NCBI GenBank assembly: GCA_046314355.1
Contig: JBKBWQ010000001.1
Location: forward strand, 160,001-224,000
Length of the DNA: 64,000 nt
Direction: 5' to 3'
Source: Candidatus Altimarinota bacterium
GTDB taxonomy: Bacteria > Patescibacteriota > Gracilibacteria > 1-14-2-50-48-13
The translations under genes and the position numbers were made by a program. This document shows positions 20,499-62,267 of this stretch, one piece after another (positions within the stretch are counted from its first letter, which is position 1; each line of letters begins with the position of its first letter). A model generated the notes under the pieces. That model saw only the letters and a list, made by a program, of their open reading frames with translations. It was not told the DNA's origin and made no database searches.

Positions 20499-20502
20499 AT
20501 AT

Positions 20503-20615
20503 GTAATTAAGTTATTGGTAATTAAGTAATTGAGGCTCATAATTCGGCTGCAATCATTGAGCTCAATTACTTAATTATTGAGCCCAATTATGTGAGCCCC
20601 AATGACTCGAGCCCC
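20503..20615. repeat. Palindromic TAATTGGGCTCAA-unit element, copy A (empty)
   Basis: Degenerate ~13-bp units in inverted arms; 20538-20577 is the reverse complement of 52265-52304 at 38/40 nt. Confidence 0.85.
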
Positions 20616-22742
20616 TTACTTCGTCTTCATCTCGTGCACCCCATCCCAATCTTTCTCGGGTGGATTCTTTATATATTCTTCGATGCGGGATTTATATAGT
20701 TTTAAGACAGAATCATTAGGATGTATTTTTATCAGCCGAGCCAAATGCTTCTTTGCTTCAACAAATTCTTTTGCTAGATAAAGTTCATATACTTTCTCAA
20801 AATCTTGTATGTACTTAAGTAGGGGTGTGTCAGCAAGAGATCTCTCTTCAATGAGTTCATATATTTGAATTGGCTGATTTTTTCCTTTTACTTTAATACG
20901 GTCAAGTATTCTAAATACAAATTCTTTTTCTGAGAGAATCTTTGTATTTTCACTGACGCATATTTCTGTACCATATACTTTATTTACTCCTTCCAGCCTT
21001 GAGGCTAGATTTACCGTATCTCCGATCACTGTATAATCAAAACGTTTCTTAGAGCCTATATTACCTACTACCATGTCTCCAGAAGCGATACCAGTACGAA
21101 TACCAACTCCTGCAAAGGTGTTCATAGTCTCTTCATCGGTTACAAGCTTGTTCATTTCCTTATGCATAGACAGAGCGCTTCGGCAGGAGAGTACTGCATG
21201 TTCTTTGAGATCAATTGGTGCCCCCCAAAATGCCATAATGGCATCTCCAATATACTTATCAAGTGTGCCTTCATATTTTAGAATGATGGAGGTCATCCGC
21301 TCAAGGTAGACATGTAAAAAGTCTACTACTTCTTCAGGAGTACGTGTTTCCGAGATCGTAGTGAAGCCTGCAATATCAGTAAATGAGACTGACATATGTT
21401 TCTTCTCTCCACCCAGTGATATCATGGAGGGATGGTCAATAATCTTCCGTACTACTTTATCTGAGACATAGTGAGAGAAGGCAGCGGTTATCTTGTTCTT
21501 AGTACGTTCTTCACGAATATATTTATAAATAATTACGGTTATAAATGTAAGAAGCAGAGCAAGAGGAGGGAACAGGGTATTAAGAACAATCTGTAGTTCA
21601 TTAAAAAACCATAAAGCAGCTACAATATATCCAGCCATAAGCAGCACCATACATATTCCGCTTACCCACGGACGCATACGGTAGAAGAGGAGAGATGCAA
21701 AAATACTGAGTAACAGCAGAATAAAAAATTCTATATATATCGGCACAGACTGAAGTCCTTTATTTGTAAGCATAGTCTCAATTGCATTTGCATGGAGCTC
21801 TACACCGGGCATTAATGTTCCAAAGGATACAGGAGCTGAGACTTCATCGTGAAGTCCAGCATTCATTTCTCCAATAAGAACAATTTTATTTTTAAAGAGT
21901 TCTGGGGAGAAGTCATTATTGTAAACTTTTACGAAAGATACAGAAGGTATACTATTTGCAGGTCCAAAGAAGTTTGTATAAAGATATTCAGTTTCCATGG
22001 GAATAATAATTGGACCATAATTCTTTCCAGTATCGGGGTTTTTTATTTTATCCTTGAGTATAACTAGTGATTTTTCAACTGCAGTTATCTCTGAAGAAGA
22101 GAGATCAAAAAATCTTCTAATGATTTCAAGAGAAAAACTGTTCTTGATGAGATCTGAATTTACTTTAAGTGGTATGTTTCTAACTGTTGCATCTGTATCA
22201 AGCGGCACATAGACGCTTCCTAGACTCATTGAAGTGCTTTTAGAATCATAGATGGTATTTACAGGTATAAGAGCAGGAGTGCCTTCCTTGGCGGCAAGTA
22301 CGATGTCTGGGTGCAGTGCGATTTTTTTTCCAAGCTCCTTATCGTCATTTGCTAATATTTCTTTTAATTTTTCTTCGTTCTCATCGCCCTCAAATACTCC
22401 TGTAAAAGCCTCATTTGCAGGTTCAGTAAAAAGCACATCTATTCCTATCACTTTTGCACCAGCGTTCTGAAGGTTTTGTACCACTTGAGCAAAATAAGTC
22501 CTTCTCCAGTTTTGCCACCGGCCTAGACCTCCTTCTGACTGCGCTTTTAGACTTTCCTCATCTATTTTTACCACCACTACATCTCCTGTATGATAACTGG
22601 TCTGATAGGAGTAGAGAAAATTACTGATCTTTAAATGCCATGAAGTAAAACCTCCAGCAAGTTCTACAGCAAAAAGAAAAATGCTGATTAAAAGAGCAAT
22701 GAAAGATATTTGGAAGATACGTGATTTTGAAGAGGCTTTCAT
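20616..22742 (-). CDS. CHASE2-domain class III adenylate/guanylate cyclase
   Basis: VVVKIDEES, AKVIGIDVLF, MPGVELHA, 3 TM helices, FTDIAGFT, DKYIGDAIMAFWGAP, GDTVNLASRLEG. Confidence 0.95.
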   Translation of the reverse strand: MKASSKSRIFQISFIALLISIFLFAVELAGGFTSWHLKISNFLYSYQTSYHTGDVVVVKIDEESLKAQSEGGLGRWQNWRRTYFAQVVQNLQNAGAKVIGIDVLFTEPANEAFTGVFEGDENEEKLKEILANDDKELGKKIALHPDIVLAAKEGTPALIPVNTIYDSKSTSMSLGSVYVPLDTDATVRNIPLKVNSDLIKNSFSLEIIRRFFDLSSSEITAVEKSLVILKDKIKNPDTGKNYGPIIIPMETEYLYTNFFGPANSIPSVSFVKVYNNDFSPELFKNKIVLIGEMNAGLHDEVSAPVSFGTLMPGVELHANAIETMLTNKGLQSVPIYIEFFILLLLSIFASLLFYRMRPWVSGICMVLLMAGYIVAALWFFNELQIVLNTLFPPLALLLTFITVIIYKYIREERTKNKITAAFSHYVSDKVVRKIIDHPSMISLGGEKKHMSVSFTDIAGFTTISETRTPEEVVDFLHVYLERMTSIILKYEGTLDKYIGDAIMAFWGAPIDLKEHAVLSCRSALSMHKEMNKLVTDEETMNTFAGVGIRTGIASGDMVVGNIGSKKRFDYTVIGDTVNLASRLEGVNKVYGTEICVSENTKILSEKEFVFRILDRIKVKGKNQPIQIYELIEERSLADTPLLKYIQDFEKVYELYLAKEFVEAKKHLARLIKIHPNDSVLKLYKSRIEEYIKNPPEKDWDGVHEMKTK

Positions 22743-26416: not shown

Positions 26417-26986
26417 ATGAGTCAGATGAAAACAGCGGCGCTATTTATAGACGCAGAAAACCTTTACTTTATACAGAAAGGATTGGGATGGGAGGTTGAT
26501 CTTCCAAAGGTATACGAATTTTTCGAAGAAAGATACAATATATACAATGCATTTTACTACACAGTAGTTGATCCTTCCAGTGAAGGATATATTGAAAAGA
26601 ATCAGTTTCTTGATACGTTGAGCCCAGTGGGCTACACGATCAGGAAGAAGATCATAAAGATCATCAAAGCAGGAGACAAGATCATCAAAAAAGGTAATTT
26701 GGATATAGAGATGGTCCTCGATATGTTTAATACCAAGGATCTCTATCAGGTCATTATACTATTTTCAGGTGATAGCGACTTCGAGCGAGCTTTAGAGCTT
26801 CTACGCACACATGGGAAGGAAATCATAGTAATCTCTTCGAGAGGATATGTATCAAAGGAACTCATGAATGCTCCTGATAAATACTACGATCTCCAGGATT
26901 TAAAAGAATACTTCAAGAAAGAGGGAACTGACAAAGCAAAAAAAGTGAATCTTGGAAAAAGAATTGGAGTGAAGAGGAGTAATTAG
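26417..26986 (+). CDS. NYN domain (LabA/DUF88) protein
   Basis: FIDAENL, KGNLDIEMVLD, LFSGDSDF. Confidence 0.9.
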   Translation: MSQMKTAALFIDAENLYFIQKGLGWEVDLPKVYEFFEERYNIYNAFYYTVVDPSSEGYIEKNQFLDTLSPVGYTIRKKIIKIIKAGDKIIKKGNLDIEMVLDMFNTKDLYQVIILFSGDSDFERALELLRTHGKEIIVISSRGYVSKELMNAPDKYYDLQDLKEYFKKEGTDKAKKVNLGKRIGVKRSN

Positions 26987-27125
26987 GCTCAAGTAATTGG
27001 ACGCACATCATTGGGGCTCAATAATTAAATAATTGGGCTCTATTTTTGTATGTATAATTATTTGCGTCTTATGATTGAATGATTGCAGCCCAATAATACG
27101 CGCCCTAATTATCGAGCCCAATTAC
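26979..27125. repeat. Palindromic TAATTGGGCTCAA-unit element, copy B (empty, ~40-bp AT-rich centre)
   Basis: Left arm 26979-27040, right arm ~27081-27125; 26993-27019 matches 62088-62114 at 26/27 nt. Confidence 0.85.
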
Positions 27126-27327
27126 TTTGCTTCTTTCTTCCTTCACTTGACAAAACATTTTTTTACATTATTATTTCCTCGATTTCAAAATCAGAAAGGA
27201 GAAGCTTGGTGGGACAATATCAAGCTTCTTTTTTTATATTTTACCTGTTCGTCAAGGGTACAGAATATCAAAAAAGATGGAGGTGAGGTATAATAGTATG
27301 AATACATTTATTCATAGCTGATAGAAC

Positions 27328-30603: not shown

Positions 30604-33600
30604 ATGTTCGGAAGAAATAATAGTTTCAATAGTGGCCGGGAATACGTGTCCCCGGAAGAATTGGAGAGTGAAAAGAACACACTGAAAAAGCTTGAGAGGG
30701 AGCTTGCTTTTAAAGATGTAATTGATATTCGTGCTCTAACAGGTGCAAGGTTAGAAAATGTATTTGAACTCACGTCTGCTCCAGATGTGGAAGAGAGAGA
30801 AGCGAAGATACTATTCCCTGATGCTACACAACAGGCTGAAGCATTAGTAAAAGCAAAGGATGCTTTTAAGACTGATCTTGATACAAAAAATCAGACACTC
30901 CCGGCAAATGCAAGTTTGATGGAGGTGATAGAACGCTATGTATTTAATGATAGATATTTAAGTATAAATTATACTGCATTAGGTTCAGAACAATATATAA
31001 TAGATAGAATAGTGAAACTCTCTTCTATACTTGGATTAGAATATCCTAAGTTAGGAAAGAGTCTGTATAAAACCCGCACTTATAAGATTGCAGTTGATAG
31101 TGAAGCTGTAGAAGAGAATATTGGTATTAATGCTGTAGGACTTTCCAAATTTGATTTTAAAAATCAGGAAGATTATGAAAAAGCTTATGCAATGCTCCGA
31201 ATAGAGACTATACGCAATAACAAACTTGCGATCGAGAATGTTGACTCAAAATTGCAGAAAGATTTATGGAAAATCATAGAAAATGATAGAGTACCGCATC
31301 CTAGAGATCCAGCTAAATCCTTAAGACCAGCAGGATACTATTCTGAAGATAATATTACTGAGTTCTCAGATCACCTTGTAGAAGTAATGACGAAATACTA
31401 CAAGCAGTTAAATGATGATATTTCAGAACTGGCAAAGAGAATACAGGATGAAATGATAAAAAATGGTTATGATTTGACCAAGATGGATAAGCCACTTACA
31501 CCAACCTTAGTATTAGACTTAGATAAGCTCAAAAAGGCTAATGATACGATGAAAAATTATAATAAGATCATGGAGAAAGTCATGACTCCTTTAATCACAA
31601 AGAAGAATTTTGCAGGCTCCATGACAAGTTTTACTACCGCAGGACCTACTGGAGCCGGAGGCGTCCCTACTACATATACATTTCCATCTAAGGCTTTTCT
31701 TCCAAATACCGAGGAACAGGATAAGGTAAAAGCACAGCTCAATGCAGAGATTCTAACTTTTACTGATGAAGCGGTAGAAAAGTTTTTCTCCAAAGCCTTT
31801 GGTAAAGATCCTGATGCTCACTCAAAAAAGGCAAATGATGTCCTTGCAAATAAACTTCGAAGTGATGCAAATAATGGTGGTATGAGAAGTACCTATATCA
31901 GATCTCCTGAAGAAGCTGAGAACCTTGTGAAGATTCTTACAAAGAAAGATATTCATATACGTCCTGGAGCATGGTTTAAATTTACTGGATTAAGAGATCC
32001 AAAAGGCGCTGCTCCTCAGTTTGAAAAGATTGTTGCTGCCACTGAAGATTATGTAGAACTCTCCCCATCAGGTAAGAGAATACCATTGCATGTATTTGCT
32101 CAATACTTGATAGATCCTGAGTATGGGACTATATCAGGGAAAGACGTAAAAATAGAGTATATATATGACGGACAGTCAGATCCTATTGATTCTTTTGATA
32201 AACTTGCAAGTAAACTTGGAGTCACTAACGGAGCAAAGTCTCCTATCCGTCCTGGTGCAAAAGTAATCGTGAAAAATGAAGAGAATCAGACCAATGAAGT
32301 CGCAGATGAGATTCTGTCTATTGATAAAAGTGGGAATACAATAACTTTAAAGTATGGCGGGCGTATGAGTTATGAGGAGTTTTACCTTCACTACTCTATG
32401 CACAACTGGAAAATTTTCGAAGATATTGAAGAATTTAACCGGATTGAGGGCGTCTCACCAAAGACAAAAGAAAAAGGCGGTTGGGCATCCATTAGTACAG
32501 TCTATAATGCTATCGTAGATAAGATCAAAGAATTTACAGATGATTTTAAGAAAAAAGATAAAATTAAAAAACTTGAGGCAAAGGTTCATTTCTTGAAGGA
32601 AGATACAGGACTGTGGAAAGCTGCGAATAAGGAGCTTGGCGGTGAAGAGACAAAGGCTGTGGATGAAAGAATAGATGAACTAAAAGCAGATTTTCCAAAA
32701 GGAGGAGAAAAAAGAAAAGGTTTGTTGGCTTTCATGAAAAATCCTCCTGACATGAATACCTTTAAAGGTCGTGTAGAGATCAAAGCATGGCTTGAGCTTA
32801 CATTAAAAACCTTTGGTACTCTTTATCCTATTGATGAGAAGGATACAAAAGCTGGGTTTACTCACTTTGAAAAAAATCGTTTTTGGATTGGTATATTTTC
32901 TACGTTTGGTTTCCACCAGGAATTTAATGGAGAAACCTATTATGCACAGCCTACAAGAGCCTTAGATGATGCCGCAAAGAAGGACGGTCCTGTGGATGCA
33001 CGTGTAGAGTACAATACTCTATTCCAAATGCTGACGCGGAATGAAAATGCCAATAGAGTACTCAAAGGTGCATTTGGAGGTGGCTACGCAGGTAAAATAG
33101 GTGGTCTTAAGAAAGAAGGTGACGGAAATATTGAGACAGGTAAGGCTGACGCGCTCAAGGCGACAAGAAATACTACTGAAGTATATAAGGTTGTATCAGA
33201 GACTATTCAGAATCAGGAATGGGCAGGACTTATCACTGTGTTTGATAAGCTTGCTCAGAAAGGATACTCTCCAGAGCAAATGTTTAACCTCTTTCTTTAT
33301 CTATTTGATAAGGTTCACTATGTTGAAAATAATGAACATATGTCAAAGATACCATTTGACGTGCTTCAGAATGTAGGAAAAAAGATTGGTGGTGCCTATC
33401 CAGTTCCATTCTTTGGAATGTTTACCAACACCACCAACTTTAGATTCTTTTCCAACATGATCTACAATAATCCTATCATTAAGGATAGATTTAAGTGGAC
33501 AAAGGACTCTTGGAAAATGGCTGAAGCCGGCGGGTTTAAAGTACCGGCAAATAATGCATCCCGCGACCTGTATAAGTTCTTTATGATGAGAGATAATGAA

Positions 33601-34284
33601 TACGATCTCTTACGAGGATTCTCTGAAGATGGTAAAAAAGATGAAGAGAAAAACTTCAAACCTGGAGAGGCGCAGTTTGCGGAGTATAGAAAGATTATCA
33701 ATGGTGTAGTCGCCAATGCAAGATATGATACAGGCAACTTAGATATTGATAAAAATAACTGGGCACAGTCTCCGCTGCTTATGCTTTCTGAAGGATTTGG
33801 TAAGATTGTTACCTCTCATCCTATGGAAGAGGGAGAATGGCAGAAAGATCCTGCGAAGCTTTTCTTTGATGCAATGCTCAAAGAGTACGGAAAGATTAGA
33901 GGTCTCTCTTCTGATAGGCTTCCTGAGAAGGATAAGGAGGCGATTAGAAAAAAGATAGCGGAGCATCTTTGGTCTACATTCTGGTATAAATTTAAATGGA
34001 ATGAAGATTCTCGAACGGCAGCATCAAGACAAGGTATCCGCGTGCGGGATCTGAACCGTGATAAATTTATTAAAGAGTATGGTAAAAAGCTGAAAGATCT
34101 CGGACTTGATTACGATGACTGTATGAAACTTACAGGTAATGAGGATGAGAAAAAAGGATTAATTAATCATCCTGATGATGGATATCCATTTGCTCCAGCA
34201 AATGAAAATCAGTCATACTACAACAATAATGCAAGTGATGTAGATAATCTCCTCAAATATCGTTATACAGGTCCTACACCTTAG
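30604..34284 (+). CDS. Large hypothetical protein (1226 aa)
   Basis: Long uninterrupted ORF; two internal IRPGA-initiated modules. Confidence 0.75.
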   Translation: MFGRNNSFNSGREYVSPEELESEKNTLKKLERELAFKDVIDIRALTGARLENVFELTSAPDVEEREAKILFPDATQQAEALVKAKDAFKTDLDTKNQTLPANASLMEVIERYVFNDRYLSINYTALGSEQYIIDRIVKLSSILGLEYPKLGKSLYKTRTYKIAVDSEAVEENIGINAVGLSKFDFKNQEDYEKAYAMLRIETIRNNKLAIENVDSKLQKDLWKIIENDRVPHPRDPAKSLRPAGYYSEDNITEFSDHLVEVMTKYYKQLNDDISELAKRIQDEMIKNGYDLTKMDKPLTPTLVLDLDKLKKANDTMKNYNKIMEKVMTPLITKKNFAGSMTSFTTAGPTGAGGVPTTYTFPSKAFLPNTEEQDKVKAQLNAEILTFTDEAVEKFFSKAFGKDPDAHSKKANDVLANKLRSDANNGGMRSTYIRSPEEAENLVKILTKKDIHIRPGAWFKFTGLRDPKGAAPQFEKIVAATEDYVELSPSGKRIPLHVFAQYLIDPEYGTISGKDVKIEYIYDGQSDPIDSFDKLASKLGVTNGAKSPIRPGAKVIVKNEENQTNEVADEILSIDKSGNTITLKYGGRMSYEEFYLHYSMHNWKIFEDIEEFNRIEGVSPKTKEKGGWASISTVYNAIVDKIKEFTDDFKKKDKIKKLEAKVHFLKEDTGLWKAANKELGGEETKAVDERIDELKADFPKGGEKRKGLLAFMKNPPDMNTFKGRVEIKAWLELTLKTFGTLYPIDEKDTKAGFTHFEKNRFWIGIFSTFGFHQEFNGETYYAQPTRALDDAAKKDGPVDARVEYNTLFQMLTRNENANRVLKGAFGGGYAGKIGGLKKEGDGNIETGKADALKATRNTTEVYKVVSETIQNQEWAGLITVFDKLAQKGYSPEQMFNLFLYLFDKVHYVENNEHMSKIPFDVLQNVGKKIGGAYPVPFFGMFTNTTNFRFFSNMIYNNPIIKDRFKWTKDSWKMAEAGGFKVPANNASRDLYKFFMMRDNEYDLLRGFSEDGKKDEEKNFKPGEAQFAEYRKIINGVVANARYDTGNLDIDKNNWAQSPLLMLSEGFGKIVTSHPMEEGEWQKDPAKLFFDAMLKEYGKIRGLSSDRLPEKDKEAIRKKIAEHLWSTFWYKFKWNEDSRTAASRQGIRVRDLNRDKFIKEYGKKLKDLGLDYDDCMKLTGNEDEKKGLINHPDDGYPFAPANENQSYYNNNASDVDNLLKYRYTGPTP

Positions 34285-35338
34285 TTGTAAGAAGGTTGGT
34301 AATATCTTGTACTGCGGAGGATGATACATTTAAAGGAGCTTTTGCAGACAAAAGCTCCTTTAAAGTTTTAAGCAGGGCTTTCATTTCTAGGTCCTTTTCC
34401 TCCACCATCCTCCCCATCTCCGGATACATCTTCATGAACTCCTCCGCATTGTCATACTGATCTCCTCGTGACTGCGCACGCGTCAAAGGGATCATGAGTA
34501 CTGGTTTCTGCAGATATATGAACTCAGCCAATGCTGTAGATCCTGCACGGCTTATGACTATATTTGTTAGAGCAAAAATGTCCTTCATCTCATCACCCGC
34601 AAATTCAATCTGTACATAACGTTTTTCTACCTCGGATTCCAATGAAACAGGGAAGCTTTTTCCTTTTCCTACAAGATGAAGAATATTGTACTGAGAGAGG
34701 ATTTCTGCCGCATTTTTTTTGATAAAATCATTAATGCTCCCAGCTCCTAGGCTGCCGCCAACCACCAAAATAACTGGCAGTTTATTTTTCTCCAAGCCAG
34801 TAAAATTATATCCATTCTCCTTACTTCCATCCTTTAATTCCTCTCTTACAGGTATGCCGGTAAGTACCGCATTCTTCCCTGGAAAGAGAGAAAGAGTCTT
34901 TTTCCACGACACGCAGATTGTAGATGCAAACTTGCTTGATATCCGTGTGGTGAGTCCTGGATAGACATCTGATTCATGAATGATCACTTGTTTCTGCAGT
35001 ATTTTTGCTGCAATTACCACGGGGAGACTCACATAACCTCCCTTTGAAAATACTACATCGGGAGAGAGTTTTATGATCAGAAAAATGCTTTGAAATATTC
35101 CAAAAAGTACTTTAAAGACATCGGCAATATTCTGCAGGCTAAAATATCGTCTCAGCTTTCCGGCTTGTATTGCATAGAAGGGAACTCCTTCCTTAGATAT
35201 AAGTTCCTTTTCCATGCTGTGATTTTCACCTATATAGCTTAAGCGGATCTTCTGATGATCCTTCTTAAGCTTCCTGAGGAGGGCTATATTGGGAAATATG
35301 TGGCCGCCCGACCCGCCTCCTGTTAATAAAATATGCAT
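34274..35338 (-). CDS. murG: MurG GlcNAc transferase
   Basis: TGGGSGGHIFP, GKLRRY, SKGGYVS, GGSLGA, SRAGS. Confidence 0.96.
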   Translation of the reverse strand: MHILLTGGGSGGHIFPNIALLRKLKKDHQKIRLSYIGENHSMEKELISKEGVPFYAIQAGKLRRYFSLQNIADVFKVLFGIFQSIFLIIKLSPDVVFSKGGYVSLPVVIAAKILQKQVIIHESDVYPGLTTRISSKFASTICVSWKKTLSLFPGKNAVLTGIPVREELKDGSKENGYNFTGLEKNKLPVILVVGGSLGAGSINDFIKKNAAEILSQYNILHLVGKGKSFPVSLESEVEKRYVQIEFAGDEMKDIFALTNIVISRAGSTALAEFIYLQKPVLMIPLTRAQSRGDQYDNAEEFMKMYPEMGRMVEEKDLEMKALLKTLKELLSAKAPLNVSSSAVQDITNLLTTKV

Positions 35339-36464
35339 GTTCTACCGTGGTGTAACGAGATATATTGAGAAGTATGCCTGTAGCTGTGATATTCATGATA
35401 AGAGACGATCCTCCCATGGATATAAACGGCAGGGTAATTCCTGTAAGAGGAAAGATCTTGGTGGCTACTGCTATATTTACAAATGCCTGCCAGATAATCC
35501 AGAAGGTTATACCGATGGCCGTATACCGTGCAAATTTATCAGGAGCATTCTGAGCGATAAGCATTCCTCTCCAGCCGATGGCTAGAAAGAGAAGAATAAG
35601 AGCAAGGGATCCTCTGAATCCTGTCTCTTCAGCTATGGCAGAGAAAATGGTGTCACTCTCCACTTCCGGAAGATATCCCCATTTCTGAATTGAGTTATTG
35701 ATACCTCTGCCCATAAAGCCGCCGCTGCCTATTGCAATGAGACTTTGCTGGATTTGCCAACCTACATTTTTATTTGAAGGGTCAATAGAAGGATCCATAA
35801 AGTCTTTGATACGGTCCTGCACATGTTTAAATGAAAAGGCAGCAAACATGAATACAAGTACTCCGATGAGAGCCATCATCAGAAGATGCTTGAGTCTTCC
35901 TCCTGCAGCAAAAAACATGACTACGAGGGTTGGGATAAGAACCAGGAATCCTCCAAAGTCCGGCTGTGCAGCGATAAGTATACCCACTACACCGGTAATA
36001 ATACAGAAGGGAATGAAGCCTGTATCAAGATTTTTCAGTTCATCCACCTTAGGCTCCAGCCAGCGTGCCAGATATATAATAGTCGATAGTTTTACAAACT
36101 CGATCGGCTGTATTGAAGGAATATTTGCACCAAAGTTCAGCCATCCTGTCGCTCCATTCAGACTTACACCAAATGAAGTAAAGAGGAGAAGCATTAGAAC
36201 AATTCCCAGAATATATAATATTGGGGAAAATCTTTTCCAGAATGTATACTTGATGTTACTCACAACAGCCCAAATAAACAGACCGCCGACTACAAGGTAT
36301 ACTTGTTTAAGTGCATAGGTATTGATCATCTCGTCCTCTATCTTCTTGATACTAGAAACAAAGCTGAACACACTTACGCTATAGACCATGATAAGGCCAA
36401 AAACTATAAGAAGGAAAACAAGGATGAGAAGGAGGTAATCAATAGAGTGTTTCTTCTGTTGCAC
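35265..36464 (-). CDS. ftsW: SEDS peptidoglycan polymerase FtsW
   Basis: IQPIEFVK, QPDFG, AIGSGG, LPEVESDTIF, GITLPFISMGGSS; adjacent to murG. Confidence 0.92.
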   Translation of the reverse strand: MQQKKHSIDYLLLILVFLLIVFGLIMVYSVSVFSFVSSIKKIEDEMINTYALKQVYLVVGGLFIWAVVSNIKYTFWKRFSPILYILGIVLMLLLFTSFGVSLNGATGWLNFGANIPSIQPIEFVKLSTIIYLARWLEPKVDELKNLDTGFIPFCIITGVVGILIAAQPDFGGFLVLIPTLVVMFFAAGGRLKHLLMMALIGVLVFMFAAFSFKHVQDRIKDFMDPSIDPSNKNVGWQIQQSLIAIGSGGFMGRGINNSIQKWGYLPEVESDTIFSAIAEETGFRGSLALILLFLAIGWRGMLIAQNAPDKFARYTAIGITFWIIWQAFVNIAVATKIFPLTGITLPFISMGGSSLIMNITATGILLNISRYTTVEHAYFINRRRVGRPHISQYSPPQEA

Positions 36465-36522: not shown

Positions 36523-37072
36523 GTAATTAAATAAGAAAATCATTAGGCTCAATCATTAGGCTCAATAACTGTTAGTATTATTGAACAACAGATCTTTATT
36601 GATAAAGAATAATTATTATGGATAGTAAGATATTATAATAAGAGATTATGACTGTAATTCTACTTAAGGATTTTAAACCATACCAAAATGCGCTTATTTT
36701 AAGTAGTAATGCTTGGAAGGTTTATAATAAGTTATCTACTCAATGTAAATTTCATCCAGGAGGACAATTTATTAGAAGTGTTGACTCTATTGGAGCAAAT
36801 ATTGCAGAAGGCTATGGACGATATCACTATTCGGATAAAAATAAATTTTACTACAATGCTATAGGATCTTTAACTGAAGTGTACTTTTGGCTTGATATAC
36901 TTAGAGATAGGGAATTTGTACTTATACCACAGTTATCTATTATTCAAGATCAGCTAAATGAACTTTTACACATATTAAATAAAATGATTTTAGATAATAA
37001 ATCATTAAAGAATTTTAACAGTAGATAATTATAAATAATTGAGCCCAATAATGTGCGCCCAATATTGAGCCC
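36523..37072. mobile_element. Putative 'loaded' element (copy C): inverted repeat arms enclosing a four-helix-bundle gene
   Basis: Left arm has AATCATTAGGCTC x2 (36538-36563); right arm taattgagcccaataatgtgcgcccaatattgagccc (37036-37072) is in inverted orientation; mobility is inferred. Confidence 0.6.
36648..37028 (+). CDS. Four-helix bundle protein (23S rRNA IVP-like family)
   Basis: QFIRSVDSIGANIAEGYGRY...KFYYNAIGSLTE signature. Confidence 0.92.
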   Translation: MTVILLKDFKPYQNALILSSNAWKVYNKLSTQCKFHPGGQFIRSVDSIGANIAEGYGRYHYSDKNKFYYNAIGSLTEVYFWLDILRDREFVLIPQLSIIQDQLNELLHILNKMILDNKSLKNFNSR

Positions 37073-38554
37073 TTATTTCTTCAACACCCCATTATCCAGA
37101 TACCCCAACGGATCCACATGTTTTCCGTCCTGGAAGACTTCAAAATGCAAGTGTGCTCCTGTGGTCATCCATCCTGCTCCGGCTGTCCCAGGGGTACCTC
37201 CGGAGAGTCCTATGATGTCTCCACGTTTGACTAGATCACCTGCGGTTACTAGGATCTTGCTTACGTGACCGTAGAGAGTCATGACACCTCCATTGTGAGC
37301 AACCATGATATAGCTGTATCCAAGACCGCTGTCTTTTACCTTGGTTACATATCCGTCAGCTGGAGAATGGATCTCGCTTGCCTGAGGTGCAGGTATGTCT
37401 ATGGCGCTATGAGCGACTCCAAAGGTATTCACATAGCTTGAATCGTGGAAATATGCGGTTATACCTCTTAGCGGTGGAACCGGCCAATCAAGACCGAGTT
37501 TACCATTTGTACCTTCACCAAGCTGTGCAAGGATCTTTGCACGTTCTGCAATTTCTTCAGGTGAAAGAGAGCTGCTGGCAATATTTTTCTGAAAAGCCTC
37601 AAGTTTAGTTTCAATTTCCTTGATGCTTTCCTGCTGAAGGAGAACTTCTTTCTGGATCTCTTCCTGTAGTTTTCTGTTTTCTTCAACGAGAATCTCAAAA
37701 TTTTTCTGTTCACCCTGGGTTCTCTCTAAAAGCAGACGTTTACTTTCCTTCTGCTGACTTAGAGTCTGCTGAGCAATAGAGAAGGACTTTTGTAGTTCCG
37801 CTAGACGCACCTGATCGTTTGTAAGCTGTTTTTTTCTGATATTTAAAAGGAGATCTACGTCCTGCAGATCTGCTAGGATATCGCTTCCGCTTTTACGAAG
37901 GATGGTTGCATATTTATTTGCAGTTAAAATGTCATTTATACCATTTTGAGTCACAAAGTAGGACACATCATTTGAAATATTCTTTTCAGGTGCAAAATAA
38001 ACCTGATTCTGTTTATAGAGAAGTTCTACATAGGTAGTAACAATTCTATCCTGTTCCTTGCCTGCAATTTCCGTAAGATTAATTTTTTCATAATTTTCAG
38101 TAACATCCTGTTCTTTTTCTTGTATCTGTATCTGTGTATTCCGTATTTGAAGCTTTGTAAGTTCTATCTCGCTATCAAGAAGTGCAAGCTCATTTGTGAG
38201 GGAGACAATATTTTTCTTGAGACCTTCAATTTTCTGCTGATAATTATTGATATCAGCAGTTATTTGAGTAAGTTCTGATACCCGGGAATCAAGCTTATTC
38301 TTTTCGTTATCAAGCTCTGTCTGAGAATAGAAAAGTTTTGAATTCCAGTTCTTCAGTACTTGACTCTGACGTGCGTTCAAGCGGTTTACTAGATCTTTTA
38401 TCTCCTTCTCTGGATCTGTCTGTGCTGAAGTCACTGAGCCTTGAGCGTGAACTGGGAAAGATAGAGAAAAAATATCTGTCCAAAACAGGGAAAAAAGGAT
38501 CAGGCTCAGAGTCAAATATGTGAATTTCTTTTTCATGTCGGGTATTATAAACAT
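37073..38554 (-). CDS. Coiled-coil M23 peptidase (EnvC-like / murein hydrolase activator)
   Basis: Signal peptide, long coiled coil, HSAID, YGH, TTGAHLHFEV. Confidence 0.88.
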   Translation of the reverse strand: MFIIPDMKKKFTYLTLSLILFSLFWTDIFSLSFPVHAQGSVTSAQTDPEKEIKDLVNRLNARQSQVLKNWNSKLFYSQTELDNEKNKLDSRVSELTQITADINNYQQKIEGLKKNIVSLTNELALLDSEIELTKLQIRNTQIQIQEKEQDVTENYEKINLTEIAGKEQDRIVTTYVELLYKQNQVYFAPEKNISNDVSYFVTQNGINDILTANKYATILRKSGSDILADLQDVDLLLNIRKKQLTNDQVRLAELQKSFSIAQQTLSQQKESKRLLLERTQGEQKNFEILVEENRKLQEEIQKEVLLQQESIKEIETKLEAFQKNIASSSLSPEEIAERAKILAQLGEGTNGKLGLDWPVPPLRGITAYFHDSSYVNTFGVAHSAIDIPAPQASEIHSPADGYVTKVKDSGLGYSYIMVAHNGGVMTLYGHVSKILVTAGDLVKRGDIIGLSGGTPGTAGAGWMTTGAHLHFEVFQDGKHVDPLGYLDNGVLKK

Positions 38555-41796: not shown

Positions 41797-41899
41797 GTAA
41801 TTAAGCAGTTAAGGGCTCGTTATTGGGCTCAATAATTAGGCGCTAATAATTGAACTCAATAATTGCAGCCCAATTACCGAGCCCCAATTACTTAATGAC
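41797..41899. repeat. Palindromic TAATTGGGCTCAA-unit element, copy D (empty)
   Basis: gtaattaag...ttattgggctcaataatt...attgcagcccaattaccgagccccaattacttaatgac; purine-rich left and pyrimidine-rich right flanks. Confidence 0.85.
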
Positions 41900-42066
41900 T
41901 CTCTTACTCAATTACTTTTTTACTTTCTATCCATTTTCTCCCTCACTTCTTTTAAAAAACTATTGCAAAAACGAATTTCTAGAGTATCTTTGTAGAGCAT
42001 ATTTAAAGAAGGGCGCTCAATATATAAAAATTAACGGTATTACTTTTCTAACATTTACACACACGG

Positions 42067-52090: not shown

Positions 52091-52209
52091 AGTCAGATTT
52101 GGAAAAATTATCGTGCATTATTATAAAGGAAGAAGAGAAAACAAAAAAGTAAAAAAAACGATTTTCTTGCCGGTTTTTAAGTGCATGATAGAGTGTAGGG
52201 GAGAAGTGA

Positions 52210-52318
52210 GTAATTGGACTCAATAATTAGGCTCAATAATTGGGCTCAGTAATTATGGCTCACATAATTAAGTAATTGCGCTCAATGATTGCAGCCCAAT
52301 TATGTGCACCCAATCACT
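52210..52318. repeat. Palindromic TAATTGGGCTCAA-unit element, copy E (empty)
   Basis: Clearest tandem units: taattggactcaa taattaggctcaa taattgggctcag, then inverted units attgcagcccaatta tgtgcacccaatca. Confidence 0.9.
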
Positions 52319-52355
52319 GATCCTCCCATCCTAACCTTAAATTTTACACTATTGT

Positions 52356-62008: not shown

Positions 62009-62087
62009 GAAATATGATTTTAAAACAAGTAATGAGAGTATACTGTTGTTTTGTCAAATTGGAAGAGGAAGGTGGAGAAGTGAGGGG

Positions 62088-62201
62088 GTAATTGGGCGCA
62101 CATCATTGGGGCTCGGTAATTAGGGCGCAATTATTGGACTTAATAATTGCAGCCTAATAATGAGAGCCCAATTATACGCACCCAATGACCGAGCCAATTA
62201 C
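62088..62201. repeat. Palindromic TAATTGGGCTCAA-unit element, copy F (empty)
   Basis: gtaattgggcgcacatcattggggctcggtaatt...gcacccaatgaccgagccaattac; purine/pyrimidine flanks. Confidence 0.88.
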
Positions 62202-62267
62202 ATTTTACCTCTTTACTTTTCTCAATTTCCTCATATACTCCACCTCAGCTTATATAGTTTCATTTTT

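Follow-up and report, generated by a model that had tools for sequence, protein, structure and literature searches.

A four-helix-bundle gene between the two halves of a dispersed palindrome in a Gracilibacteria genome: a candidate transposase-less hairpin cassette with the plan of 23S rRNA intervening sequences

The function of the S23p (PF05635) proteins has been open since the intervening sequences (IVSs) of 23S rRNA genes were described. In Coxiella burnetii, Leptospira, Xanthomonas, and Brucella, such IVSs measure about 0.43-0.55 kb, are patchily distributed, hold an S23p open reading frame (ORF) in a stem loop closed by terminal inverted repeats, contain heptamers in the arm region, and have been read as selfish elements. 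The IVS of Coxiella, described as a "selfish element", has a length of 428 nt; RNase III cuts its 28-bp terminal stem, the S23p ORF occupies the loop, and a tandem array of GACAGAT heptamers precedes this ORF. For IVSs, an origin by transposition has been put forward (PMC4990558). The same text cites a Xanthomonas PF05635 homologue that forms a homopentameric ring; PF05635 ORFs are also reported from insertions in rRNA genes of the Candidate Phyla Radiation (PMC11270868), and the family is said to resemble Avd, the pentameric nucleic-acid-binding partner protein of diversity-generating retroelements (DGRs) (PMC10053308). This study deals with a PF05635 gene that lies between two protein-coding genes in a 64,000-nt stretch (hereafter the window) of a Candidatus Altimarinota bacterium of the class Gracilibacteria (contig JBKBWQ010000001.1, hereafter C1, positions 160001-224000). 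The gene (the cargo gene) and its two flanking repeat arms are referred to as the cassette, and the locus joins the S23p family and intergenic repeats in one genome, with one loaded cassette and about fifty gene-less copies that have the same arms.

Short tandem repeats of this kind have been reported before without a mechanism. The TAACTGA heptamers found between genes of Beggiatoaceae, Cyanobacteria, and Bacteroidetes give stops in all frames, overlap upstream stop codons, and have no evident mechanism of transfer (PMC4679880), and those of Xanthomonas (GGGAATC) are frequently arranged in convergent pairs (PMC4692102). The cassettes described below resemble both in their short tandem units, three-frame stops, overlap with upstream stops, convergent pairs, and patchy occurrence; the available text of these two papers draws no link between the repeats and PF05635 genes. 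Full-text literature outside the subscription journals yielded no such cassette between protein-coding genes and no link of one to gene-less hairpins. ORF-bearing 23S rRNA IVSs are the closest known relative of the cassette. Unlike them, it is situated between protein-coding genes and not in rRNA, runs antisense to the operon of its host, and has arms of 13-nt units that supply stop codons, and roughly 54 gene-less copies exist alongside it. For the IVS, excision by RNase III has been demonstrated (PMC4990558).

The host genome (G000; 1.69 Mb, 38% G+C, 98% complete) is translated well with table 11, although its class includes relatives with TGA as a sense codon. The cargo gene (window positions 36648..37028, plus strand; intact, 126 aa) is antisense to all three genes of the array that it interrupts, namely, the M23 peptidase gene upstream (37073..38554, minus strand; PF01551, E 4e-23), ftsW downstream (35265..36464, minus strand; PF01098, E 6e-92), and murG (34274..35338, minus strand), and the M23-ftsW gap measures 608 nt. 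The left arm (36539..36571, plus strand), which is delimited by nhmmer, by its sequence, and by pairing, consists of two 13-nt units (ATCATTAGGCTCA), the flank showing AATCATTAGGCTC twice at 36540-36565, and is followed by a leader of 76 nt (36572..36647, plus strand) that reaches to the start codon. The right arm (37034..37075, plus strand; nhmmer) has three inverted units (ATTGAGCCC / GTGCGCCC / ATTGAGCCC), seen in the flank as ATTGAGCCCAAT / GTGCGCCCAAT / ATTGAGCCC at 37038-37072. It adjoins and contains the stop codon of the M23 gene, whose 3' end reads, on the minus strand, ...AAG AAA TAA and then GGGCTCAAT.

The arm unit belongs to a repeat family of this genome (family A). The window contains 16 matches to ATTRGGCTCAAT with at most one mismatch where 1.1 are expected, a count that none of 100 shuffles reached, and the genome contains 156 matches in 66 clusters (control, 7). 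Because the units of a cluster typically lie on the plus strand in its left part and on the minus strand in its right part, the clusters are hairpins. A 135-position hidden Markov model (HMM) was built from 43 seeds aligned on their conserved centre (39 after removal of doubles) and used to scan contig 1 with nhmmer at E<=0.01. This returned 56 merged loci, 50 of which are at least 80 nt long, and these represent 54 gene-less copies of a palindrome of about 110-130 nt made up of 13-nt units, plus the two arms of the cassette. In this model the left arm corresponds to positions 28-55 (E 0.0056), while positions 71-120 are hit by the right arm (E 5.6e-6; on the minus strand positions 5-55, E 4e-6); since they hit separate parts of the model, the arms are the two halves of one element, with 462 nt in place of its centre. 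No other pair of half-hits encloses a gene in G000. Five complete gene-less palindromes occur in the window itself, at 20500-20624 (E 3e-24; the stop codon of the adjoining minus-strand gene abuts its first unit), 26973-27141 (a composite; E 9e-15), 41797-41919 (E 3e-20), 52204-52332 (E 5e-20), and 62073-62213 (E 1.5e-20; sequence inspected), so that the description in the first-pass annotation, of flanks that are halves of a palindrome present empty at five other sites of the window, is borne out. When each strand is folded at minimum energy, the two arms pair with each other over the cargo, by 28 long-range pairs in one case and 25 in the other, and the predicted arm duplex of -24.3 kcal/mol compares with -8.3 +/- 2.4 kcal/mol in 200 shuffles, the best of which reached -16.8.

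Related genomes indicate that the cassette, gene and arms together, is an insertion at M23-ftsW. The M23-ftsW-murG order is kept in all three genomes of the same family (G001-G003; M23 proteins 45-49% identical), where the M23-ftsW spacers are 12, 78, and 5 nt long and contain no four-helix gene, no hairpin, and no repeat unit in any of the three; it is from these short and bare junctions that insertion is concluded. No family-A clusters were found in these three genomes, which have 11, 10, and 12 scattered unit matches against 156 in G000 (control 7) and 0, 0, and 1 (partial) PF05635 matches.

A second genus of the class, g13, replicates the pattern and also provides an empty site. The nearest relatives of the cargo protein in the class (43% identical) occupy one common site in two g13 genomes, G112 and G029, within arms of GTAACTT heptamers, the first of which provides the TAA of the upstream gene. 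In a third genome of the genus, G012 (98% complete), the site is empty: neither gene nor arm is present, the junction measures 2 nt, and the upstream gene is about 9-10 codons longer; in the loaded genomes the insert replaces about 35 nt. This comparison marks arms and gene as one insertion unit in g13. G029 has 105 matches to the GTAACTT-unit pattern TAACTTGTAACTTG (at most one mismatch; reversed control 0), G112 has 25 (1), and G012 has 4 (2), the numbers of matching cassette copies being 2, 1, and 0, respectively, and the best relative of the g13 cassette protein in G012 is only 27% identical. All of the 16 G029 sites that were inspected are gene-less GTAACTT/GTAATTT heptamer hairpins, nearly all with a small GC hairpin embedded, and in G029 the arms of a paralogous cassette (L036) are built in the same way. 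By these counts, gene-less hairpins co-occur with a matching cassette in two lineages. PF05635 genes are frequent in g13, with 16 matches in G112 and 11 in G029 (genomes of 1.0-1.3 Mb, i.e., about one per 65-120 kb), and 18 of the 25 that could be scored in these two genomes have arms, mostly unlike one another; the arms of the 11 cassettes of G112 differ by eye, and 28 of 76 same-genome cassette pairs have any arm 6-mer in common, at a low level only. As a further observation, the pairs L174/L186, L180/L189, and L181/L191 are close counterparts with like arms in the G112 and G029 species, a shared site having been checked for the first pair.

The arm-gene-arm design is general among relatives of the cargo gene, as judged from a bracket score, which takes the highest-scoring local inverted repeat with one side in the 250 nt upstream of an ORF and the other in the 150 nt downstream (threshold >=28), with the other ORFs of the same loci as controls. 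Relatives at E<=1e-8 are present in 27 of 301 genomes of the class (G000 included) and in none of the three same-family genomes. Bracketing arms were found at 15 of 28 of these relatives as against 0 of 51 control ORFs (28 of 29 foreign loci scorable, one being without a tblastn match), at 50 of 69 metagenome relatives as against 6 of 97 controls (80 loci, 11 with short flanks), and at 53 of 76 relatives from species genomes as against 4 of 68 controls (80 loci; the cargo protein served as the single query). The metagenome and species sets overlap; dereplication reduces their 145 entries to 114, and arms are present in 76 of these. The suggestion that PF05635 genes of other genomes would be flanked by inverted tandem units of their own thus holds in all three samples. 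The species-genome hosts include Campylobacterota, Bacteroidota (cultured Belliella, Pararhodonellum, and Indibacter among them), Patescibacteria, Nitrospirota, Gammaproteobacteria, and others; the nearest relatives of the cargo protein lie in unrelated phyla, and four-helix genes are patchy. In 65 cassettes of the class and metagenome sets, arm periods are most often 7 nt (34 times), 10 nt (24), 8 nt (19), and 11 nt (11), the remainder being 16 nt (5), 14 nt (4), 9 nt (2), and 15 nt (2), and only 4 of 101 periods are divisible by three. Read inward, 66 of 130 arms have stops in all three frames (44.7 expected from shuffles), and the upstream co-directional gene ends inside the arm or at most 10 nt from it in 27 of 52 cases.

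A short core is shared by the arms of this protein subfamily. Defined as GWWATW (G[AT][AT]AT[AT]), it occurs at least twice in 69 of 103 left arms of cargo-protein relatives, at 5.5 per 100 nt as against 0.88 +/- 0.13 in shuffles, and at none of 26 distant four-helix genes. After dereplication, two or more copies are present in 51 of 76 left arms and, as the reverse complement, in 46 of 76 right arms, compared with 2 of 76 when the wrong strand is read; a pattern-free search gave GAAAT as the commonest repeated 5-mer (29 of 76). Since the hosts span unrelated phyla, the association is no effect of host lineage, and on these counts a strand-specific GWWATW core accompanies the subfamily from phylum to phylum. 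The gene-less family-A elements contain the core mostly as GTAATT, with 138 inward and 13 outward copies and at least two copies in 41 of 50 elements.

That the ORF antisense between the M23 gene and ftsW encodes a four-helix bundle is confirmed by its match to PF05635 over all model positions (1-106 of 106; E 3.1e-21, 76 bits, cut-off 33.8), by TIGR02436 (78.7 bits, cut-off 24), and by an AlphaFold model with four helices (predicted local distance difference test 93.3, predicted template modelling score 0.86). The best structural matches of this model are Xcc0516 (2GSC; TMq 0.82, root-mean-square deviation 1.0 A) and BT_0352 (2RLD; TMq 0.77-0.80), followed by the Avd chains of DGRs (8UBB, 4DWL) at TMq 0.72-0.75, in keeping with the Avd-like fold assigned earlier. 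The NIAEG and GS..E motifs, invariant in a 10-sequence alignment, are both kept. The first-pass annotation had regarded the isoleucine of the 'AIGS' motif as replacing a conserved arginine and had suspected an impaired copy. This suspicion is rejected because arginine is not conserved at this position (of 31 aligned family members, 11 have R here, 7 have L, 3 have Y, 2 have I, and the remainder differ from all of these), and with an intact ORF and a match to the full PF05635 model, nothing flags impairment. The statement that the element has no recognisable transposase stands: profile scans gave no transposase-family match for the cargo protein, the only ORF of the cassette is PF05635, and comparison of the protein with PADLOC and PHROGs was negative.

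The gene-less family-A copies have a common set of ordered unit variants and a palindromic centre (TAATTGAGCTCAATTA) which the loaded copy does not have. They thus go back to a gene-less progenitor and not to 54 separate losses of the gene, and were amplified as gene-less units. With respect to the genes of G000 as called by a crude ORF caller (1377 ORFs), none of the elements lies inside a gene. The stop codon falls inside the element for 28 of the 41 gene 3' ends that face one and within 10 nt for 32 of 41, several ORFs running through the first unit and ending at the TAA of the next, while facing 5' ends (n=62) lie at a median distance of 71 nt. Many gene ends are therefore set by the repeat, which matters for annotation. 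The orientation of an element, taken as its higher-scoring HMM strand, agrees with that of the gene facing it in 19 of the 23 cases (binomial p 0.003), a signal to which the 10-20 nt of flank included in the family-A seeds may contribute; asymmetric elements, including 20500-20624 and 52204-52332, point in the direction of the gene they touch. Several family-A elements come after a separate hairpin that resembles an intrinsic terminator. Two further observations concern the surroundings of these elements: the outer parts of many consist of degenerate 7-8-nt 'AGTAAnn' units, and runs of (GTAA)n or (AGTAAGTA)n directly follow stop codons beside family-A elements at C1:405317-405345 and about C1:794310-794345.

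G000 contains two more four-helix genes, around which family-A arms are not enriched. One (C1:452371-452727) lies inside inverted heptamer arrays, CTAATTC/CTAATCC ... GAGGATG/GGGATAAG (region C1:452231-452795), of a second family (family B), of which roughly 15-20 hairpins without a gene occur in the genome; its right arm is followed by a further array, from which a convergent 458-aa radical-SAM/ELP3-like ORF takes its final six codons and its TGA stop. The other (C1:749611-749964) stands beside a tRNA gene and has a palindrome (ACTAGT.ACTAGTGAC.GTCACTAG...) upstream only, with no downstream arm; this belongs to a third palindrome family (ACTAGT.ACTAGTGAC.GTCACTAGT.ACTAGT) of about ten copies, one of which, C1:750060-750115, lies between the tRNA gene and the four-helix gene. 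It is the design that is repeated in G000, each time built from another repeat family.

The reading preferred here, to which about an even chance of being correct is assigned, is that an IVS-type hairpin cassette was inserted whole at M23-ftsW, that the gene-less palindromes are derivatives comparable to MITEs (miniature transposable elements with inverted repeats), and that recognition of the arms by the protein drives copying. The four-helix gene would lie in the loop between complementary arms of tandem units, and the whole would enter a genome as one foreign unit; the gene-less palindromes would be amplified derivatives that lost the gene and settled on stop codons. The tandem units may serve as cis-acting ends that are read, through multiple GWWATW-type cores, by the pentameric, nucleic-acid-binding protein of the cassette itself, and such recognition, together with host replication and repair enzymes acting on hairpin DNA, could give rise to copies of both loaded and gene-less elements. 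By analogy with the 23S rRNA IVSs, three-frame stops and a long stem cleavable by RNase III would keep an insertion in an operon nearly harmless. Three observations lead us to infer that the protein reads the arms and drives copying: the motif of the subfamily, hairpins and cassettes that co-occur in two lineages, and a fold like that of Avd. A wider version is put forward with more hesitation and is rather doubtful: PF05635 proteins in general may be sequence-specific recognition factors of widespread transposase-less hairpin cassettes that copy themselves and gene-less offspring with host enzymes, the offspring giving frame-independent stops at gene 3' ends. If this were so, such cassettes would be the source of the long unexplained 7-13-nt tandem and inverted intergenic repeats in many bacteria, and of rRNA IVSs, and a possible new way for small DNA elements to spread without a transposase would be at hand.

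Several results weigh against this reading. The loaded family-A copy is single, its arms contain no strict GWWATW (ATCATT instead), and the definition of that motif is post hoc, as it was set after the arms had been viewed. The co-occurrence of hairpins and cassettes comes from genomes that are related within two lineages and do not count as independent samples, and in G112 and G029 protein similarity is no significant predictor of arm similarity (rho 0.16 and 0.22, reached by 827 and 845 of 5000 permutations, respectively). The cassette contains no catalytic domain, no target-site direct repeat was clear by eye at M23-ftsW or between the loaded and empty g13 sites (no systematic test was made), and no excision product was found, for which reasons mobility is deduced from comparisons only. 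Among sequencing runs, this DNA turned up in the probable source sample only and in no RNA run; two runs, examined as contigs (in which rare alleles are invisible), contained no variant, joint, or empty-site allele, a result that bears neither way on mobility or expression. The antisense position at M23-ftsW is unusual, given that 35 of 65 cassettes are in sense within a co-directional gene pair and 1 is antisense. Since the same-family relatives are distant, a history in two steps, with the hairpin first and the gene later, may also have taken place at M23-ftsW. The sense RNA of the gene-less elements folds more stably than the antisense RNA in no more than 9 of 23 cases (the reverse in 14 of 23; Wilcoxon p 0.046), which gives no support for a selected RNA hairpin in the 3' untranslated region. 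Lastly, a genome-wide bracket test ranks the cargo gene only 33rd of 1377 ORFs (12th for the heptamer-armed gene, 625th for the third), because ordinary genes often sit between two complete elements, and it is such genes that take the top ranks.

The main rival to the cassette reading takes the palindrome as primary, i.e., as an element similar to a MITE or to repetitive extragenic palindromic (REP) sequences which is spread by host or other functions, and the four-helix gene as a passenger that entered a pre-existing copy, the arms being its target. The ratio of 54 gene-less copies to one loaded copy would suit this history, as would the palindromic centre found only in gene-less copies, which points to amplification without the gene in cis, the order of units in the M23-side arm (GGGCTC, GGGCGC, GGGCTC), which is the usual order of gene-less copies, and the degraded look of the loaded arms; arms of 30-50 nt could moreover offer homology for gene conversion into any copy. 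It is nevertheless considered improbable, though a serious contender, since arms and gene are present or absent together in g13 with no hairpin at the empty G012 site, and the M23-ftsW junctions of the relatives have no hairpin either. A passenger would also hardly account for bracketing arms that are specific to four-helix genes in all three surveys, for the differing arms of the 11 G112 cassettes with their few common 6-mers, or for a core motif that follows the protein subfamily across phyla. The position of the gene-less copies could be read differently again, with the hairpins as elements of the host at gene 3' ends (stabilisers of mRNA, terminators, or sites of processing), the four-helix protein as their regulator in trans, and nothing mobile at present. 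Stop codons inside the elements, the distance to 5' ends, an orientation that follows the facing gene, and the presence of an RNase III gene in G000 agree with such a role, but it is quite unlikely in view of the lack of family-A clusters in the three same-family genomes, the patchy four-helix genes with nearest relatives in unrelated phyla, a sense RNA that is seldom the more stable one, the absence of T-run terminators from the cassette, and the separate terminator-like hairpins that precede several elements.

Two remaining explanations carry still less weight. G000 contains an IS200-type Y1_Tnp gene (C1:772665-773087; E 8.9e-30) and a frameshifted second copy (C1:827718-828114), and it might be supposed that this transposase, of the type of the REP-associated tyrosine transposases (RAYTs), moves the palindromes in the manner of REP sequences or REP doublets forming hairpins (REPINs), the four-helix gene being unrelated to their spread. 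This is very improbable, as both copies are flanked by GC-rich hairpins of their own (CCCCGGAG...CTCCGGGG type) that are unrelated to family-A, B, and C units, and no family-A element is found beside either. That chance placed a small gene between two pieces of a common intergenic repeat is hardly credible: the repeats are indeed abundant and ordinary genes between complete elements outscore the locus in the bracket test, but it is the sole site where left-half and right-half hits surround a gene, and the design recurs in three samples of relatives and, with other repeats, at the second four-helix gene of G000.

Comparison with other known systems places the cassette reading as follows. The first-pass annotation had proposed an autonomous/non-autonomous pair modelled on RAYT/REP or on an insertion sequence (IS) and its MITEs. 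The pairing as such fits the gene-less hairpins that track a matching cassette in two lineages, whereas the RAYT/REP form of it is rejected since the ends of the Y1 transposase are unrelated to family A. As in REP/REPIN-RAYT systems, extragenic palindromes are dispersed at gene ends and a single-copy gene is flanked by the repeats, but the flanked gene encodes a four-helix bundle and not a Y1 transposase. IS/MITE pairs share with the cassette a long gene-bearing form and many short gene-less ones, themselves amplified, with common terminal inverted sequences, and a copy number that tracks the gene-bearing form in the few lineages compared; unlike them, the cassette has no recognisable transposase fold or catalytic motif, has arms of tandem arrays in place of unique terminal inverted repeats, and overlaps stop codons. 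The fold is that of Avd, but G000, at its 98% completeness, has no RVT_1 match, i.e., no reverse transcriptase, and there is no template or variable repeat, so that a DGR reading is rejected. Finally, the candidate had been announced as a new mobile element. The design is not wholly new, because ORF-bearing 23S rRNA IVSs, as presented in the available text of PMC4990558, have the same plan of a stem loop with an S23p ORF, heptamers included.

Some minor features of the window and contig complete the picture. The leader has weak promoter-like matches only, the predicted one being TTGATA-16-GATAGT at 36599-36626 (9 of 12 matches), and 8 promoter-like sites were counted in the cassette region as against 4.6 +/- 1.9 in shuffles. 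The same scan of the cassette revealed no terminator, and Rfam at its gathering threshold returned a single tRNA for the whole window and no match on the hairpins. Beyond the host array, an ORF of 1226 aa at 30604-34284 (plus strand) is convergent with murG, and, elsewhere on the contig, a repeat of about 300 nt is common to C1:42-338 and C1:2630-2966.

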